This document shows, in pieces, positions 3,678 to 53,526 of a stretch of 64,000 nt of DNA; position 1 is the first letter of the stretch, and every line of letters starts with the position of its first letter. The stretch is from Candidatus Omnitrophota bacterium (lineage in GTDB: Bacteria > Omnitrophota > Gorgyraeia > Gygaellales > Profunditerraquicolaceae): assembly GCA_016783715.1 (NCBI GenBank), contig JADHWA010000001.1, positions 118 to 64,117 on the forward strand. Reading direction: 5' to 3'. The notes under the pieces are model-generated. The model was not told the DNA's origin and searched no databases. It saw nothing but the letters and a program-made list of their open reading frames with translations. A program made the translations under genes and the position numbers.

Positions 3678-4940
3678 TTACTCTTTATCTTTTTTGATAC
3701 GAGCCCCTAATTCCTCTAACTTCTTCTCCATATTCTCGTACCCGCGCTCAAGATGGTAGATCCTGGTTACTGTGGTTTTCCCTTTAGCTATCAGTCCTGC
3801 TAAAACCAAAGATGCCGAGGCCCGCAGGTCAGATGCCATTACTACCGCTCCGGATAAATCTTTATTGCCAGAGATTATCGCATGCGGCCCTTCCCGCTGG
3901 ATATTTGCTCCCATGCGGTTTAACTCAGCGACATGCATAAATCTATCGGGGTAGATCTTTTCGGTTACAACGCTGATACCGGGAGTCACGCTCATCAGGC
4001 TCGTAAACTGCGCCTGCATGTCAGTGGGGAATCCCGGAAAAGGAAGTGTGGTAATGTTAACCGGTTTTATCTGACGACGGCAAGATACTCGAAGCGAAGA
4101 ATCCATTCTCCTAACTTGTACCCCTGCCTCCTGGACCTTATCAATCAAAGCCCCCAGATGCTGACTCAAGACATTCTTTATTGTAATATCCCCCCTGGTA
4201 ATTAAAGAGGCCAGGATAAATGTTCCGGCCTCGATCCTGTCCGGGATAATCCTGTGCTCGGCCCCATGCAAGTGCTTTACCCCCTCTATTTCGATAACCG
4301 GGGTACCGTGCCCTGAGATTTCAGCACCCATCTTAATCAGAAATTCCGCCAGATCCGCTACTTCAGGCTCACAGGCAGCGGATTCGATTGTGGTCTTCCC
4401 CCGGGCTAAAACCGCAGCCATCATTACATTGTCGGTCGCCAGCACCGAAGAGCCAAATACGCCGCCTAGATAAATCAGATTACCTTTAAGTGAATCTGCA
4501 GAGGCCGATATATATCCGGCATCAATATCTATATCAGCTCCCAGAGCCTTTAGGCCTTTGATGTGCAGGTCCACCGGCCTGATCCCAATTACGCATCCTC
4601 CGGGATATGAGACCTTTGCTTTCTTGAGTTTGGCCAAAAGCGGGCCCAATACGCAAAAAGAGGCCCGCATCTTAGATACCAATTCGTAATCTGCGATATG
4701 GCTTTTTCTCCTGCCGGATGTAACCGTAGCTATCCCCCTGTCAAACTCCACATTTTTACCAAGGGTCCGCAGGATCTTAAACATTGTCTCGGTATCGCGT
4801 AACTCCGGAATCCCTTTAATTATACAGGCATCATCAGTCATTAAGGTCGCCGCAAGTATCGGCAATGCCGAATTCTTCGCTCCCGATATCGAAACCTCTC
4901 CCTTAAGAGCTACCCCGCCTTCTATCACTAACTTATCCAT
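3678..4940 (-). CDS. murA: UDP-N-acetylglucosamine 1-carboxyvinyltransferase
   Basis: [20 protein letters not shown]-terminus. The ORF track starts 5 codons earlier (MRSLN) from an ATG created by the upstream repeat element; the likely start is the ATG at 4940. Confidence 0.9.
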
Positions 4941-4942
4941 AT

Positions 4943-5120
4943 TTAATGAGCGCATAACTTAGCGAAGCTAAGTTATAGCGTCCGTTATTTTACTTGTATA
5001 TAAGCGTGCGCGAATTAACCCAGCACTTATTTGGCATGTGCTTAGCATTCAACAAATAAGTGCTGGGCAAATTCCCCCGCACCCAAACAAGTAGTAGTAT
5101 ACACTTGACTGGGTGCGGGG
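4943..5120. repeat. type-A three-hairpin intergenic repeat element (fills the prmC stop to murA start spacer)
   Basis: hairpins ATAACTTAGC-GAA-GCTAAGTTAT, CCCAGCACTTATTTG..CAAATAAGTGCTGGG, CCCCGCACCCA..TGGGTGCGGGG; linker GCGAATTAA; termini AATGAG / TCATTT. Confidence 0.7.
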
Positions 5121-5948
5121 TCATTTGACCTTTTGCGCTATAATGATTCTCTCTATATTATTATAATCTCTAATTATCCTATAAACAGAAAAATCTTTCC
5201 TCTTTTTTAAAATACTCTCTACGGGCCTCCTCTGATTCAACCCGATCTCCAGGGCCAGAAACCCACCTGGCTGGAGATGTTTTAAGGAGCCAGCGATTAT
5301 CCTGCGATAAAAGTCTAATCCATCCCTGCCGCCATCTAAGCCAATACGCGGTTCATAACCAATCTCAGACGCCAAATTATCGATCTCTCCAGAGACAATA
5401 TAAGGCGGATTACTGACAATAATGTCGCATGTCGCATGTCGCATGTCGCATGTCGCAAACAAATCAGATTGGATAAACTCTATCCTTTTATCTACATAGT
5501 GCAAAGAGGCGTTATTTTTGGCTACTTCAAGCGCTTTCTCTGAAATATCAGTAGCGGTTATTGCTACCTGTGGTAATAATTTAGCCAGCGATACCGCAAT
5601 ACATCCCGAACCGGTACCTATCTCTAAGATCCTCCTACGATTAGCGATATGCGATAAGCGATTAGCTAACTTTATTATTGCTTCTACTAAAAGTTCTGTT
5701 TCCGGACGCGGGATAACCACTCCGGGATTTACCTTAAATTCAAAGCCCATAAATTCCTGTTTACCTAATATATACTGCAGGGGCTCACCTTTGGCTCTTC
5801 GTTTTAGAACAGAAGAGATCAAGCGCAATTGACTCTTATTAGGGGCCGGAGGTCTGCGGCTATAGAGGTCAATGCGATTGCACTTTAGAACATCGGTAAA
5901 TAATAATTCAGCTTCGTTCACCCAGCCTTTCCTCCTACTTGTACCCAA
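5121..5948 (-). CDS. prmC: release factor glutamine N5-methyltransferase
   Basis: IVSNPPYI motif, AdoMet-binding GTGSG; start uncertain (TTG as called; the N-terminus lies in a tandem repeat). Confidence 0.8.
   Translation of the reverse strand: MGTSRRKGWVNEAELLFTDVLKCNRIDLYSRRPPAPNKSQLRLISSVLKRRAKGEPLQYILGKQEFMGFEFKVNPGVVIPRPETELLVEAIIKLANRLSHIANRRRILEIGTGSGCIAVSLAKLLPQVAITATDISEKALEVAKNNASLHYVDKRIEFIQSDLFATCDMRHATCDIIVSNPPYIVSGEIDNLASEIGYEPRIGLDGGRDGLDFYRRIIAGSLKHLQPGGFLALEIGLNQRRPVESILKKRKDFSVYRIIRDYNNIERIIIAQKVK
5422..5456. repeat. heptamer microsatellite (ATGTCGC)x5 inside prmC coding sequence
   Basis: perfect 5 copies; encodes ATCDMRHATCD just before NPPY. Confidence 0.85.
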
Positions 5949-6043
5949 CCCTTTGGAAAGGCTGGGTCCTCCTACTTGTACCCAACCCTTTAGAAGGGCT
6001 GGGTCCTCCTATTTGTTTCCCAGTCCTTTATGAAGGGCTGGGT
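5931..6043. repeat. tandem repeat, 3 copies of 37-39 bp (CCTCCTACTTGTACCCAACCCTTTGGAAAGGCTGGGT) spanning the prfA stop and prmC start
   Basis: units at 5931-5967, 5968-6004, 6005-6043; the third unit encodes the prfA C-terminus. Confidence 0.8.
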
Positions 6044-7106
6044 CCTCTGCTGCCTTGATCAGAGCCAGAGAGACCTCATCAAGATCACCATCAAGCACTG
6101 CTTCTAATCGATGTATGGTAAAATTAATCCGATGGTCAGTAACCCGGCGGTCCGGAAAATTATAGGTACGGATCTTCTCGCTGCGATCCCCGGTACCGAT
6201 CTGTGAACGCCTCTCCTGGGAGACCTTCTTAGATTCCTCATGTTGTTTGGCATCCAGTAGGCGGGCGCGCAGTATACGCATTGCCCTAACTTTGTTTTTT
6301 CCCTGAGAACGCTCATCCTGACAGGCTACTACCGTACCGGTGGGGATATAGGTAATTCTCACTGCCGAATCAGTCTTTTGCATATGTTGGCCGCCGGGGC
6401 CGCTGGAGCGGTAAGTATCGATCCTCAGATCTTTGGCATCGATCTTTAAGTCTACTTCCTTAGGCTCAACCAGCACCGCTACCGTGGCCGTAGAGGTATG
6501 TATCCTCCCCTGCGCTTCGGTAACCGGAACACGCTGCACCCGGTGGACACCGCTTTCAAATTTAAGCCTCTTATAGGCATTCGGCCCTTTTACGCTAAAA
6601 GATACGTCTTTAAATCCCCCTGACTCATTGGTACTAGCTGACATCAACTCGACCTTCCACCCTTTATTGGCGGCATATTTTGTATACATCCGGTAAAGAT
6701 CAGCGGCAAATAGACCAGCCTCGTTTCCTCCGGTCCCCTGCCTGATCTCAACGATCAGATCCCTGCCCAAATCCTTGTCTTCTCCGGAAAGCATCTTCTT
6801 CAGGCGCTGCTGGAGGTCAACCCTCTTATTATTTAATTCCTCCGTCTCCTTTCGGGCCAGCTCCAGAAATTCTTCATCATGCTTCTCCTCTAAAACCTTT
6901 GCCAGATCGAGGATCTCGGCCGACACCCGCTGATACTCTAGAAACAACGCTACCGGCCCCCTAAGAGAAGCCATCTCCTTTGCGTATTTATTACACTCCT
7001 CCCTGTTTGAAATCACCTCAGGAGAAACTAAGAGCGCTTCCAGTTCCTGATATCTTTTTTTCATTGTTTCCAGCTGCTCGAACATAATAGTAAAACTCCC
7101 TGGCAC
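6009..7106 (-). CDS. prfA: peptide chain release factor 1
   Basis: GGQ motif ([10 protein letters not shown]), PVT tripeptide region, RF1 length. Confidence 0.9.
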
Positions 7107-7133: not shown

Positions 7134-7343
7134 TTAGTCTTTCTTTTTCTTCCCATATTTCTTCATATATTTATCTACCCGGCCTGCTGAATCAACGAAT
7201 TTCTGCTTACCGGTAAAGAAGGGGTGGCAGTTGGAGCAGACCTCCACTCTGATGTTCGGTTTTGTCGAGCGGGTATGTATGGTATTCCCGCAGGCACAGA
7301 CCACTACGCTATCCTGGTATTTTGGGTGAATCTTATCTTTCAT
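7134..7343 (-). CDS. rpmE: 50S ribosomal protein L31
   Basis: MKDKIHPKY..Cxx[14 protein letters not shown]. Confidence 0.85.
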
Positions 7344-7486: not shown

Positions 7487-8743
7487 TTACTGGTTCATAC
7501 TGTTTAAAAACTCTTCATTATTCTTTGTTTTACTCAGCTTGTCGATCAAAAGCTCCATTGCCTCGACATTATTTAATTCATTAAGCACCTTTCTTAAGAT
7601 CCAGGCCTTCTGCAGGATATCAGGCTTAAGCAGCAGCTCCTCATGACGGGTATTGGAGCGCTTGATATCGATTGCAGGATAGATCCTCCTCTGGAATAAA
7701 TTCCTATCCAGCTGCAATTCCATATTGCCGGTACCTTTGAATTCCTCAAAGATAACCTCATCCATACGGCTGCCGGTGTCCACCAGAGCTGTGGCGATGA
7801 TGGTCAGACTCCCCCCCTCCTCGACTGCGCGCGCAGCACCGAAGAAACGCTTAGGCTTCTGCAGGGCATTGGAATCTATACCTCCGGATAACACCTTACC
7901 GCTATGCGGGATAACCGAGTTGTATGCCCGGGCTAAGCGGGTAATACTATCCAGGAGGATTACTACATCCCGCTTATGCTCAACCAGTCTCTTGGCTTTC
8001 TCTAATACAACCTCGGCAACCTGAACATGCCTCTCCGGCGGCTCATCGAAAGTGGAAGATATGACTTCCCCCTTGACGCTTCGCTGCATATCGGTAACCT
8101 CCTCCGGACGTTCATCGATTAACAGGACTATCAGAATACAATCGGGATTATTATTCACTATAGCGTTGCCGAGCTTCTGCAATAAAACGGTCTTGCCGCT
8201 GTAGGGCTGTGCGACGATCAGTCCGCGCTGCCCCTTCCCGATAGGAGTCAAGAGATCCATGATCCGCATCGAGGTCTCTTTGGGGGTAGTCTCTAAGACA
8301 AAATTTTCCCTCGGGTAGATAGGCGTAAGGTTATCAAAGAGGATCTTATCTTTTGATTCTTCGGGATTCTCGAAATTCACCGCCTGGACCTTAAGCAGGG
8401 CAAAGTACTTCTCTCCCTCTTTCGGAGGACGTATCTCACCGCTTACGGTATCACCGGTCTTAAGGTCGAATTTCCTTATCTGCGAAGGTGATATGTATAT
8501 ATCGTCCGGGCAGGGCAGGTAATTGTAGTTAGGAGAGCGCAGGAAACCAAACCCCTCAGGAAGGATCTCTAAGATCCCCTCTCCGAACATCAGGCCTTCT
8601 TTTTCTGCCTGCCCCTGAAGGATCTTAAAGATCAGCTCCTGTTTTTTCAGTCCGCTTATTCCGTTTACACTGAGCTCTTTGGCGCGTTTATTGAGCTCGG
8701 TTATCTTCATATCTTTTAACTTTTGGATATCTAATTTTTCCAC
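7487..8743 (-). CDS. rho: transcription termination factor Rho
   Basis: N-terminal rho domain, Walker A GKT, RecA-like core; GTG start with AGGAGG 6 nt upstream. Confidence 0.9.
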
Positions 8744-48720: not shown

Positions 48721-50505
48721 TTACCTCCTGAATATTTTCTTGAATTCCTCTTGGCTGCCTGGGCCGCTGGTGCTGAAAATCTGCTGATTATCGATTAAGA
48801 ATGTAGGCCCGAACATAACCTGTAATTCACTATTAAGCCTGATGTTCTCGCTGAGCAAATCTCTTCCCTCCTGACTCCTGGCACAGTCTCTGACCCGGGA
48901 GACGTCGCATTCACCCGATAGACACTCCTCCCACCAGGAGCTGTTGATATTTTTTGCCCGGCAGATTATATAATCCCAGAAATCCTGCGGACACCAAGTT
49001 TTGACACAGAGGCTGCGCAGATACTCCTCGATCTCACCGGTGCCACCGGCAGAATCGAATTTACCCTCTAGCTCGGTGGCCAGGAAGTGAATCCGGGGAT
49101 CAAAACTCCTGGTTGCTTCTAATATAGACGATGAATACTTATTGTAGAGGCTTATGAATAGGTCAAGGCCCCCGGATATTTTCTTCCTGTTGATATAATA
49201 GGATACGCCCGAGAATTCCGGTTTAAGTATTAGAAACTCATCCCCCTCGACGAACTTCTCTCTTAAGGCCCCAAAATTAGGCTCTTCGACGATCTCTTTC
49301 TCAAAGATAAAGGCCGGCAGAGTCTGGATATCCAGCTCGGCGACTATTTTCCTGGCTTGCCTTTGGGGATAGACAAGCTTAGAAGTAGTTACCCCTGGAA
49401 ATGTCTCTTCAAGATAAGTAATACTCCCGGCTGCATTAAACAACTCCCTTCTCTTGGGTTCAATTACCCAGAGCTTAACCTCCCCGGCAGGAGTAAATTC
49501 ACACTTAGCATCTGAAGTGCCCGGATTACCACAGGAGGCAATACTTCCTTTCTTCTTGCAATCGTTATCCCTGAAACACTGCGGCAGGACAGATTTAATC
49601 TCAGGATCGTCCCTAAACTTCTTGGTCAGTTCTATATCTTCGCTCTTTACATCTGTTATCCGGCCTGCCTCTATCTCCAGGGTAACCTTGCCTAAACTTC
49701 TGGCCTGCCAGGAAGGCTGTAAGATTATGGTGGAACTCTCTTCTGCCGTAAGGTCCTTCTCCATCCTGTTGTATCTGGTTATAAGTAGATCTACCCCCGG
49801 CACCTTCTTGACTAACTCCAGATCTTCACCCGGATCCAGCCGGCTCAAAAGTATGATTACTCCGACCTGATTATCTTTTAGCTGCTTAATCGTATCCCGG
49901 AGCGCTTCTTGGGGGGCGCTGACGCTGACACCGGATACTCTTCTGGCTATCCTGGGAGCTGATATGCCGATAATCCCCACCTTGACACTGCCGACTTGCT
50001 TGATAATAAAAGGATGAATCTTATCAAGCTTAACATTGCATGATACAAGCGGGAATTTATTCTCGTCGGAGAATTTTGTAAAGAACTCTTTCCCGAAGCC
50101 AAACTCATCCTCTCCGATACAGGCAGCGGTATACCCCATCAATTGCATCGCCCTGATATTGGCCAGTGTTCTCTCTTTATCAAGCCGGGAATTCTGCGCG
50201 TATTCATCTTGTGGTCCCCCGGCAAAAAAAGATCCCGAATCAAGTAATAAGGCATCAGGAGCCTGCTTTCTGATCTGCTTTACCAGCGTAGACCTACGGG
50301 CTAAACCCCCGTTTCGCTCGTGCGGGCAGTCACAAGGGTATAGCATCGCGTGAGTGTCGCCGGTATATAAAATTGTAATTTCCTCCGCGAAAGAGAGCGA
50401 AAAGTTCAAAACGCAAAGTGCAAAACTAAAACTTAAAGCTAAAAGCTTTACACTTTTAACTTCACCTTTGCGCTCTGCGCTTTGCGCTTTGCGCTTATTT
50501 ATCAT
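48721..50505 (-). CDS. secreted calcineurin-like metallophosphoesterase / 5'-nucleotidase-family protein with Cys-rich and DsbA-like C-terminal extension
   Basis: signal peptide; GDTHA metallophosphatase motifs; C-terminal GPTFLIDNQ resembles a thioredoxin-fold cis-Pro loop; many Cys. Confidence 0.55.
   Translation of the reverse strand: MINKRKAQSAERKGEVKSVKLLALSFSFALCVLNFSLSFAEEITILYTGDTHAMLYPCDCPHERNGGLARRSTLVKQIRKQAPDALLLDSGSFFAGGPQDEYAQNSRLDKERTLANIRAMQLMGYTAACIGEDEFGFGKEFFTKFSDENKFPLVSCNVKLDKIHPFIIKQVGSVKVGIIGISAPRIARRVSGVSVSAPQEALRDTIKQLKDNQVGVIILLSRLDPGEDLELVKKVPGVDLLITRYNRMEKDLTAEESSTIILQPSWQARSLGKVTLEIEAGRITDVKSEDIELTKKFRDDPEIKSVLPQCFRDNDCKKKGSIASCGNPGTSDAKCEFTPAGEVKLWVIEPKRRELFNAAGSITYLEETFPGVTTSKLVYPQRQARKIVAELDIQTLPAFIFEKEIVEEPNFGALREKFVEGDEFLILKPEFSGVSYYINRKKISGGLDLFISLYNKYSSSILEATRSFDPRIHFLATELEGKFDSAGGTGEIEEYLRSLCVKTWCPQDFWDYIICRAKNINSSWWEECLSGECDVSRVRDCARSQEGRDLLSENIRLNSELQVMFGPTFLIDNQQIFSTSGPGSQEEFKKIFRR
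50467..50494. repeat. heptamer microsatellite (TTTGCGC / TCTGCGC)x4 at codons 5-13 of the nucleotidase-like gene
   Basis: 4 copies, 1 variant; encodes KRKAQSAERK. Confidence 0.7.
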
Positions 50506-52117: not shown

Positions 52118-52232
52118 ACTCTAAACCCTAAATCCTAAACCCTAAATAAAATCCTAAATCCAAAACTCAAATTATTAAAAATAAAACTTTGGGTTTGTTT
52201 AGAGTTTAGTGTTTCGAACTTAGGATTTAAAA
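52118..52232. repeat. CCCTAAA-type heptamer repeats plus long imperfect inverted repeat between the serC-like gene and serA
   Basis: AACTCTAAACCCTAAATCCTAAACCCTAAAT.. pairs with ..GTTTAGAGTTTAG..TTAGGATTTAAA. Confidence 0.6.
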
Positions 52233-52235
52233 TCA

Positions 52236-53381
52236 TTATTCACCTTGCAAAAAGACTTCTTCGGCGGCTCGGACACCCGCGCCTAACTCGAATTTGTACC
52301 CCATCTGAGTAAGAACCTTCTCTAAGCAGCAGATACCGGCAATAATATCGAGCTCCTCAATAAAACCCATGTGGGCGATACGGAATATCTTTCCTTTAAG
52401 CTGGGCCTGTCCGCCGGCGATAGTTACCCCGTATTGATCGCGCATGGTCTTAACTAACTTTTCACCGTCTATCCCTTCGGGAACCCTTACGGCGGTTACC
52501 GCATCCGAGGCAGCATCGACACTGAGTAATTCCAGCCCTAAGGCCTTCATCGCCGTACGGGTGGCAACTGCCAGCCTCTTATGACGTGTAAAGATATTCT
52601 CTAATCCGTCTTTGCGCATAATCTTCAGGGCTTCCTTTAATGCAATCACCAGAGTAATCGCCGGAGTAAAGGCGGTATCAAACTTATCCAGCGCCTTCTT
52701 GGCGGCCTTTAAATTAAAATAGTATGCAGCAGCCTTATTGCCGTCTATTATCCCCCATGCTTTTTTTGAGACGCTCATAAAGGCAAGCCCTGGAGGAAGC
52801 ATTAATCCTTTTTGTGACCCTGAAACACAGATATCTACACCCCAGGCATCGGTCTTCATATCAATCGCTCCTAATCCGCTGATCGCATCTACGACTAACG
52901 CTGCCTGAGCCCCCTTGGCGATCTTGCCTATAGCCTGGATATCCGTTGTGACACCTGTAGAGGTCTCACAGAGTGTAGTGAACACCGCCTTAATCTTGGG
53001 ATTAGCCTTTAATTTTTTTTCTATCTCTTTGGGATCGACCGCCTGGCCCCACTCTACATCAATAACCTCCGCATTTATTCCGTAGGCCTTGGCAATCTCT
53101 GCCCATCTCTCGCCGAATTTTCCGCCCTGAACTGTTAAAACCGTATCCCCTTTGGAGGCCAGGTTCACAACCGCTGCCTCCATAGCTCCGGTGCCCGAAG
53201 ATGTCAATACAAAACAGTCATTTGCGGTCTGGAAGATAACTTTTAGCCCCTCACAGACCTCTTTGAATATCTCCTGGAAGTCAGGTGTGCGGTGATGGAT
53301 TATCGGCTGTGCCTGCGAGAGAAGCACCTCAGGAGGCAATGGCGTTGGCCCAGGCGTCAATAAATATTTCTTTTTCATCAT
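52236..53381 (-). CDS. class-V aminotransferase (phosphoserine or serine-glyoxylate type), probable SerC function
   Basis: PGPTPLPPEVL N-terminus, PLP-lysine region; adjacent to serA. Confidence 0.65.
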   Translation of the reverse strand: MMKKKYLLTPGPTPLPPEVLLSQAQPIIHHRTPDFQEIFKEVCEGLKVIFQTANDCFVLTSSGTGAMEAAVVNLASKGDTVLTVQGGKFGERWAEIAKAYGINAEVIDVEWGQAVDPKEIEKKLKANPKIKAVFTTLCETSTGVTTDIQAIGKIAKGAQAALVVDAISGLGAIDMKTDAWGVDICVSGSQKGLMLPPGLAFMSVSKKAWGIIDGNKAAAYYFNLKAAKKALDKFDTAFTPAITLVIALKEALKIMRKDGLENIFTRHKRLAVATRTAMKALGLELLSVDAASDAVTAVRVPEGIDGEKLVKTMRDQYGVTIAGGQAQLKGKIFRIAHMGFIEELDIIAGICCLEKVLTQMGYKFELGAGVRAAEEVFLQGE

Positions 53382-53394
53382 TACTATTCTCCTT

Positions 53395-53526
53395 CAATAA
53401 GCTGACCCAGCCCTTGCATGCAAGGGCGGGGTAGCATCTATTGTTTACCAATCTATTAAGCGTCTGCGCATTGAACCCAGCACCCAGTCTAGTATTTATA
53501 TTACTTGTTTGGGTGCGGGGTCATTT
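53395..53526. repeat. type-A repeat element (upstream of the serC-like gene)
   Basis: GTTTACCAATCTATTAAGCGTCTGCGCATTGAACCCAGCAC block about 85% identical to 48582-48625; ends GGGTGCGGGGTCATTT as at 5103-5120. Confidence 0.7.

Follow-up and report, generated by a model that had tools for sequence, protein, structure and literature searches.

The window analyzed in this study is a 64,000-nt stretch of DNA from Candidatus Omnitrophota bacterium, the minus strand of which carries the genes rho (7487-8743), rpmE (7134-7343), prfA, prmC, and murA (3678-4955) in that order. The subject here is a tandem repeat at the junction of prfA, which encodes release factor 1 (RF1), and prmC, which encodes the release factor glutamine-N5 methyltransferase. 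An earlier note, made from the DNA letters alone, had described a 37-bp repeat in three copies at this position. The array is recovered by Tandem Repeats Finder at 5930-6047 (period 37, 3.1 copies, 90% matches, score 176), and is the only long-period array in the window. It consists of three tandem units of 39, 37, and 37 nt on the minus strand (5935-6047), followed by half a unit; shuffled sequence contains no such unit (0 matches in 100 shuffles). The features of the junction are listed below in the direction of transcription, where E denotes a family of palindromic hairpins described in a later section.

6009-7085, minus strand: prfA (RF1), 358 aa, ATG at 7085, TAG at 6011-6009
6009-6047, minus strand: unit A, 39 nt, GAGGACCCAGCCCTTCATAAAGGACTGGGAAACAAATAG; GAGG, an E-like hairpin (6018-6043), and AACAAATAG, which includes the prfA TAG
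5972-6008, minus strand: unit B, 37 nt; GAGG, an E-like hairpin (5980-6004), and ACAAGTAG; untranslated
5935-5971, minus strand: unit C, 37 nt; two differences from unit B
5919-5936, minus strand: half element D; Shine-Dalgarno sequence (SD) AGGAGG (5936-5931), distal arm GGAAAGGCTGGGT (5932-5920), and GTG (5921-5919)
5121-5921, minus strand: prmC, 266 aa from GTG; intact, with an NPPY motif

The repeat array and the start of prmC

Unit A is formed by the last 12 codons of prfA and its TAG, in agreement with the earlier note, which had identified its third unit as the actual 3' end of prfA. The hairpins of units A and B have energies of -12.3 and -17.2 kcal/mol, respectively. Each unit end carries the sequence TAGGAGG, combining a stop codon with a strong SD, such that the terminal TAG of unit A and the first bases of unit B create one exposed AGGAGG (6010-6005), and the terminal TAG of unit B and the first bases of unit C a second (5973-5968). 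The partial unit GAGGAAAGGCTGGGTG ends in GTG 5921-5919, which is in frame with prmC and the T of which is the final base of the half element D arm. The 5' arm of unit C, ACCCAGCCTTTCC (5967-5955), is a perfect partner of this half element. Read on the plus strand, the same sequence (5920-5932) is complementary to unit C at 13 of 13 positions and to units B and A at 11 of 12 each, which bears out the hairpin pairing of the units proposed earlier. The count of three differences between units B and C given in the earlier note is in error, the two units differing at two positions.

Contigs from seven other samples (L081-L085, L098, and L099) contain the same three-unit junction. The repeat is therefore real, and an assembly artefact is ruled out. 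In six of these seven assemblies the junction is identical over a 160-nt exact string, and the remaining one, L098, carries one single-nucleotide polymorphism (SNP) on the loop side of unit C. No copy-number variation was seen at the array in the seven samples, and the array is fixed at three copies wherever the population has been sampled.

The mechanical open reading frame (ORF) of prmC opens at TTG 5948, inside the array, and yields an N-terminus, MGTSRRKGWVNE, that the earlier note had doubted to be native. PrmC homologs, several at 58-77% identity, begin with MNEAELLFTD or MTEAELLFTD and are 266 aa long; GTDB relatives have this N-terminus directly at the prfA stop, and public gene calls on identical contigs start prmC at the GTG. 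TTG 5948 is spurious, being merely the first start codon past the prfA stop in an accidentally open frame. The true start lies downstream, as had been anticipated, at GTG 5921, 27 nt past the called TTG. For prfA, the start is ATG 7085, and a longer reading from GTG 7106 is unsupported; the exact 358-aa PrfA product is on record in five contigs, with the Pfam domains PCRF and RF-1. Annotation of this locus should thus be corrected to prmC from GTG 5921 and prfA from ATG 7085. Within the prmC coding sequence, a perfect heptanucleotide repeat (ATGTCGC, 5.1 copies, 5422-5457) encodes ATCDMRHATCD. It is absent from relatives of 77% identity, and in P0004 the loop contains a 7-aa duplication of another kind. 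This repeat is a potential slippage or phase-variation site, since adding or dropping a single 7-nt unit would shift the reading frame of prmC.

A palindromic cassette inserted between overlapping genes

The closest sampled relatives of the window are L090 and L089 (~88-93% nucleotide identity), L087 (~80-95%), and L091 (~73-87%), and the PrmC proteins of L087-L091 are 70-77% identical to that of the window. Where both genes are called (L087-L089 and L091-L095), these relatives encode a 354-aa PrfA, the ORF of which runs 14 nt into prmC, and lack any repeat. Their ancestral junction reads GAAGAGAAGAGAAATGA..., with the overlap in the form ...GCAGCCGAAGAGAAGAGAAATGACAGAAGCTGA, and the ancestral prfA stop is UGA. 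L090 (~90% nucleotide identity) aligns as a repeat-free junction, the 5' end of its prmC falling in a scaffold gap, and prfA and prmC overlap or are closely adjacent, again without a repeat, in L001-L004. The three-copy array is thus not conserved in related genomes, and the outcome of this comparison that, according to the earlier note, would have refuted its reading did not arise.

In alignment with the relatives, the window has ~100 extra bases between AAGGCAG and (A/G)TGAACGAAGC, in place of ~14 nt, and no part of the ancestral junction looks like the repeat unit. The tail of PrfA as it now stands is therefore a product of inserted DNA; the last 11 residues, which are encoded by unit A, are insert-derived by alignment with relatives. 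The description of the unit as built from the prfA stop and prmC start accordingly stands in part only: the final three-fold amplification copies a derived junction, whereas the ancestral junction is unlike the unit. The further claim that the expansion lengthens and structures the junction is upheld, a 14-nt overlap in the relatives having become an 87-nt structured spacer in the window. A survey of prfA-prmC distances over 80 GTDB loci was confounded by the longer N-termini of PrmC in other phyla, and was not used.

One contig, L086, is otherwise 100% identical to the window for kilobases, with a ~370-nt patch that lacks the array. It was considered as an array-free strain polymorphism and rejected, as the differences are confined to 5796-6168, where L086 equals L090. 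Either recombination or chimeric assembly would account for this patch, so that L086 provides no clean evidence of polymorphism. A second cluster of SNPs separates L086 from the window in rho (8588-8636). Some real recombination in the population is likely, because L098 combines the array with two L090-type SNPs upstream.

The same cassette occurs as a single copy in two other lineages. In L185, an Omnitrophota locus with the gene order coaE-rho-rpmE-prfA-prmC (Rho 89% and PrfA 72% identical to those of the window), the prfA-prmC junction holds one cassette, ...GAAG, ACCCAGCCCTTCCTAAGGGCTGAGT, TTTAAAGATATGAAAGG, AAGAGCTGGGT, and GACAGAAGCC in succession; PrfA ends in ...AAEEDPALPKG before the stop, and the prmC GTG arises from GGGT+G. 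In the second, P0139 (contigs L220-223), PrfA ends in ...AADPALPKGCG, and the junction has the layout of L185 with a perfect distal arm. A screen for E-encoded tails among the 120 best PrfA homologs places the cassette in three of 120 PrfA lineages. The nearest PrfA neighbors of each carrier (88-92% identity) have no cassette, and PrfA identity among the three carriers reaches only 73-75%, which argues for three independent acquisitions, or else dozens of losses. Two sisters of L185, L224 and L225, likewise without a cassette, have PrfA tails ending in ...(S/N)LGNK and a stop; their tail DNA, CTTAGGAAATAAGTAA, resembles CTGGGAAACAAATAG of the window, through coincidence or as a remnant of an older event.

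In all three carriers, a 5' arm that is read in frame as D-P-A-L within prfA is followed by a short loop, a proximal 3' arm that has decayed, a linker, a distal 3' arm, and a G completing the GTG. The linker is 12-17 nt long and A/T-rich, and contains the prfA stop and a purine-rich SD. The window differs from the single-copy lineages solely in that the part comprising arm, loop, arm, and linker is triplicated. This triplication is flanked by GAGGA on both sides, from which slipped-strand amplification is inferred.

The hairpin core belongs to a much larger family. Prompted by a weak second match at 53404 in the window, JGI metagenomes were searched with an idealized hairpin, ACCCAGCCCTT-N(2-8)-AAGGGCTGGGT. 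The perfect form of this palindrome, designated E, is present in at least 120 JGI contigs (L100-L219) with unrelated flanks, where ~1 would be expected by chance. E has arms of 11-14 nt, and most copies are perfect palindromes of 26-28 bp with centers such as CGCG, GCGCGC, CTAG, or GCATGC. Copies are strongly intergenic (13 of 77 lie inside an ORF of at least 100 aa, vs. 72% of random positions), and many occupy short spacers between co-directional genes; others split -35-like TTGACA boxes, in the arrangement TTG-E-TGACA. After related flanks were clustered into 76 independent contexts, an exact 2-nt flanking duplication was found in 29, vs. 4.75 expected (p = 5e-16), and a 3-nt duplication in one. 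A duplication of this kind is the signature of insertion with a 2-bp stagger.

All three array hairpins match E with at most two substitutions per arm, as does one further site in the window, with none expected in shuffles:

53405-53432, no strand assigned: second E copy of the window, ACCCAGCCCTTGCATGCAAGGGCgGGGT, one mismatch; 0 such matches in 50 shuffles

This copy is intergenic and lies 23 nt upstream of the ATG of a minus-strand gene (52236-53381). Short tandem repeats were also noted at 50466-50496 (7 nt, 4.4 copies) and 52123-52166 (14 nt, 3.3 copies). Among comparison loci from other organisms (560 kb) a single marginal match to E was found, in L011. The exact repeat-unit pattern gave no match in JGI metagenomes or IMG/VR, and the perfect E hairpin was found in no viral contig of IMG/VR. 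Rfam returned no match at E<=1 for window positions 5500-6500, and only tRNAs for 20 E-bearing loci. Canonical E copies have unrelated flanks, with no conserved ends of the GTAG/CTAC type, and no pair of left and right ends resembling those of an insertion sequence (IS) and E-like in sequence was found in 735 kb of loci. A MIRU-like mini-ORF with GTGA overlap at solo E copies is unsupported, the candidate in L103 being out of frame with the real gene.

It is very likely that the array is an inserted E cassette that was subsequently amplified. The alternative that it is a purely local tandem duplication of the native prfA/prmC junction, with no foreign element involved, accords with the head-to-tail units, the GAGGA microhomology at the flanks, and the identity of unit A with the present prfA 3' end, and it is the best account of the amplification step itself. 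As an explanation of the whole array it is very improbable: the unit bears no resemblance to the ancestral junction, the family to which the hairpin core belongs has members in at least 120 unrelated contigs as well as elsewhere in the window, and single-copy cassettes lie at the same junction in other lineages.

Some E copies are associated with small nucleases. Filled and empty sites can be compared within single contigs, where a tRNA-Trp with E in its anticodon loop (CC duplicated) lies beside an intact tRNA-Trp. In seven tRNA-Trp contexts, an ORF of 81-83 aa encoding a GIY-YIG nuclease (PF01541, E=1e-14) is found ~20-400 nt from E. The order in L128/L137, L179/L117, L133/L203, and L170/L138 is E, then directly the GIY-YIG ORF, then an intact tRNA-Trp; in L218 and L219 these parts are arranged differently, and the L177 contig is truncated. 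Two E copies bracket the entire insert of L128, and in L170 the D loop of the broken tRNA-Trp contains another E-like insert. From its layout, the arrangement looks like a mobile cassette that breaks and replaces the resident tRNA-Trp. GIY-YIG homologs are annotated in Doudnabacteria, Collierbacteria, Levybacteria, Paceibacterota, and Omnitrophota. In the Omnitrophota contig L226 (2928-3308) the GIY-YIG ORF sits exactly between E-like arms, ATCCCGCCCTCT and AGAGGGCGGGAT, at the center of a palindrome with 47-nt imperfect arms; in the rho-rpmE spacer of L185 (1650-1800), this outer palindrome is centered on a solo perfect E instead. This suggests that L226 and L185 carry the ORF-containing and ORF-less forms of one element. 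GIY-YIG homing nucleases make cuts with 2-nt 3' overhangs, which would fit the 2-bp duplication of E. A link between these nucleases and the mobility of E is at most suggestive. The window itself contains no GIY-YIG gene.

Predicted structure at the prmC start

The 5' arm of unit C and the distal arm of half element D form a helix of 13 bp (C5':D), present in both the minimum free energy (MFE) and centroid structures (fold z-score -3.8), with an energy of -27.2 kcal/mol vs. -14.5 kcal/mol for the hairpin of unit C itself. The SD and start of prmC are therefore predicted to be sequestered by a perfect 13-bp helix. In the ensemble, the spacer between SD and start is 0.001 unpaired, and the two upstream AGGAGG motifs are ~0.9 unpaired. 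The predicted cost of opening the segment from SD to GTG is as follows.

Window: 10.1-10.3 kcal/mol
L220: 12.6 kcal/mol
L185: 7.3 kcal/mol
Relatives without the cassette: 2.2-6.7 kcal/mol

Across the three lineages, the helix between the 5' arm and the distal arm is paired in 38 of 39 alignment cells, with one double change from C:G to U:A in the window, and the proximal hairpin is paired in 30 of 33.

In the window, the masking partner of the prmC start lies outside translated prfA, and in L185 and L220 it lies inside. The perfectly pairing arm (5967-5955) lies 42 nt downstream of the prfA TAG, the GTG lies 87 nt downstream, and the unit B hairpin begins 4 nt past this stop. A relay of the ermC type, in which a ribosome stalled at the prfA UAG would release the prmC site by way of alternative hairpins, was considered and rejected: when a ribosome footprint is constrained at the prfA TAG, the C5':D helix is retained and opening becomes more costly (12.9 vs. 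10.3 kcal/mol). A negative effect has been described for structure just past an upstream stop (PMC12548453). For phage f1 genes VII/IX, coupling is kept at +62 nt spacing, with the stop still within the hairpin, and lost at +89 nt, with the stop upstream of the hairpin (PMC12548453). Uncoupling is predicted for the window because the masking arm lies 42 nt past the TAG, the footprint fails to free the site, and f1 offers the precedent of loss at +89 nt.

These elements can be assembled into the following scheme, in which the cassette consists of an E hairpin, an A-rich linker with a stop codon and SD, and a second 3' arm completing the GTG. It took the place of an ancestral 14-nt prfA/prmC overlap, whereby RF1 acquired an 11-residue tail and a UAG stop, and prmC an SD and a GTG start. 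The 13-bp helix of the outer arms would bury the segment from the prmC SD to the start. In the single-copy lineages, with the upstream arm in the last prfA codons (D-P-A-L), a terminating ribosome would melt this helix and allow prmC to initiate. Slippage at the GAGGA microhomology would then have triplicated hairpin and linker in the window genome, leaving the masking arm untranslated, such that coupling would be largely lost and a stable constitutive hairpin would damp PrmC initiation. We infer the mechanism of amplification and all the effects on translation. The earlier note had proposed the expansion as a candidate for the control of translational coupling; a role in coupling is plausible from the predicted structures, and the in-silico result suggests that amplification breaks coupling rather than tunes it. 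Taken as a whole, the best explanation, and one that is probably correct, is a palindromic cassette, amplified three-fold, that masks the prmC start. The narrower proposal, of amplification severing the coupling of prmC to prfA and reducing PrmC initiation, is put forward tentatively, as a possibility drawn from folding predictions.

Several observations weigh against this explanation. Over a wider opening window (-20..+13) the cost is 11.7 kcal/mol, inside the 5-15.3 kcal/mol range of the relatives. The covariation of the helix is not significant, with one compensatory pair in three sequences and 174 of 500 shuffles, and the MFE structure of L185 favors the proximal hairpin. With a strong SD (AGGAGG, 9-nt spacing), two-thirds of which is exposed, prmC could initiate independently to an adequate level through standby binding. 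Given an intact, conserved prmC and the fixation of the allele across seven other samples, whatever cost there is must be small. At the level of insertion, the cassette junctions have no 2-bp duplication, and 14-38 nt of ancestral sequence are replaced, from which it appears that the insertion mechanism here is not the simple one of solo E copies.

One alternative is a neutral passenger, that is, selfish or slippage DNA that is tolerated since it supplies a stop, an SD, and a start, its hairpins having no regulatory effect. The strong and partly exposed SD, the unexceptional -20..+13 opening energy, and the intact prmC are all in keeping with such DNA, as are the solo, intergenic state of most E copies, with no obvious function, and the restriction of the cassette to three of 120 PrfA lineages. 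A neutral passenger is nonetheless rather unlikely, given that the same architecture has arisen three times independently, on each occasion with one arm read in frame within prfA and the distal one adjoining the start, that the distal helix is better kept than the proximal one (97% vs. 91% of cells paired, with a compensatory change), and that the cost of opening the core segment from SD to start is about twice that of the relatives.

Two further functions were weighed for the junction. In the first, the array would act as an mRNA-stability device of the REP/BIME kind, the hairpins blocking 3'-5' exonucleases, stabilizing the prfA segment, and setting the RF1:PrmC ratio. Three consecutive stable hairpins directly past the prfA stop, and the concentration of the E family in short spacers of co-directional genes, would suit this function. 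It is improbable, however, as it leaves unexplained why the distal arm overlaps the start codon in three lineages, and no terminator-like U tract was found; a scan of the coding strand at the junction for such a tract or a promoter returned nothing relevant.

The second would be a sensor of RF1 activity. PrmC methylates and activates RF1, and UAG is read by RF1 only; low RF1 could thus permit readthrough of the prfA UAG, which would melt the masking helix or produce an RF1-PrmC fusion, and so raise PrmC. Readthrough would give the junction-spanning peptide EDPALLKGWVQVGG... In favor of this, prmC is in the reading frame of prfA, and 29 codons pass without a further stop, in what is the sole frame open across the array; in addition, UGA was the ancestral stop, and the masking helix lies in the path of readthrough. 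Yet this combination, noticed post hoc, is expected by chance at a few percent, and no context promoting readthrough was identified. The prfA genes of the other two cassette lineages end in UGA and UAA, and only one of the two is in frame with prmC. The sole apparent natural RF1-PrmC fusion, at 3001-4813 of L028 (a Planctomycetia metagenome-assembled genome), is an artefact of a run of N at the junction, and was rejected. A sensor of this kind is extremely improbable.

Relation to known repeats and implications

The array and its cassette have counterparts in several known systems. One of these is coupling by RNA unfolding, as in rpmI-rplT of E. coli, coat-lysis of MS2, and VII-IX of f1, where the downstream ribosome-binding site is paired with the upstream ORF; the single-copy cassettes of L185 and L220 have exactly this layout. 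The window differs in that its masking arm lies past the prfA stop, a situation comparable with the f1 spacing at which coupling is lost.

MIRUs are short tandem units that lie inside operons at gene starts and keep the flanking genes expressed (PMC12548453). The array resembles them in placing 3.1 copies of 37-39 nt between prfA and prmC, with the distal arm abutting the GTG, and in that the cassette supplies an in-frame tail, stop, SD, and start. However, MIRUs carry a small ORF coupled at -4 nt, whereas the cassette has no ATGA/GTGA overlap, and the only internal ORF of the array (from a TTG in unit B) has no SD and stops 13 nt before the GTG. The cassette is, moreover, a hairpin palindrome of unrelated sequence in an Omnitrophota host, with solo E copies of 26-28 bp and a 2-bp duplication.

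REP/BIME, Correia, and RUP elements are likewise short intergenic palindromic hairpins between co-transcribed genes, sometimes in tandem clusters, and can change the expression of neighboring genes. REP/BIME elements (Enterobacteria) are imperfect extragenic palindromes of 20-40 nt with a cognate RAYT gene (IS200/IS605-like); the hairpins studied here, of 25-28 nt, match them in size, in intergenic bias, and, in the window, in forming a cluster of three. It differs from REPs, which make no target duplication, in its non-specific 2-bp duplication, and from Correia and RUP, which duplicate TA, in being a perfect 26-28-bp palindrome whose duplication is non-specific. No RAYT or IS with matching ends was found for E in 735 kb of loci, a RAYT not having been searched for genome-wide. 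E combines inverted arms, a target duplication (2 bp), a lack of coding capacity, and many copies, as MITEs do, though the array copies themselves have no duplication and the only E-linked genes encode the ~80-aa GIY-YIG nucleases.

Rickettsia palindromic elements are mobile, and insert in frame in protein genes, adding residues without destroying the protein. They are ~100-150 bp long and Rickettsia-specific, whereas the cassette provides an 11-residue C-terminal tail only. The +1 frameshift of prfB (RF2) is a parallel solely for the proposed RF1 sensor, as a case in which the stop of a release-factor gene may report its activity; the array has no frameshift site, conservation, or sign of recoding. 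No published description of E was found in the library searched, by sequence or by keywords. The feature, a lineage-specific triplication, is of a known kind, that of intergenic palindromic mobile repeats of the REP, MIRU, or MITE type, and its parent family E is undescribed.

The prfA-prmC junction shows that a selfish palindrome can enter one of the most highly conserved overlapping pairs of translation genes and be tolerated there, as happened three separate times; an extension of the reading frame, a stop, an SD, and a start all came with the element. Together, the single-copy and triplicated states form a natural series in which to test RNA-unfolding coupling and the balance between RF1 and its methyltransferase. 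It is tempting, if doubtful, to speculate further that E may represent an undescribed class of ultra-small mobile DNA, mobilized in trans by stand-alone GIY-YIG nucleases of 80 aa, and that a 52-nt derivative of E would have been captured three times at prfA-prmC as a stop/SD/start module that re-creates coupling, with the triplication in the window breaking it. Read in this way, the family may be common to Patescibacteria and Omnitrophota, and may target tRNA-Trp anticodon loops, -35 boxes, and operon junctions. If it is true that GIY-YIG nucleases mobilize E, this would be a new transposition strategy in uncultivated bacteria.

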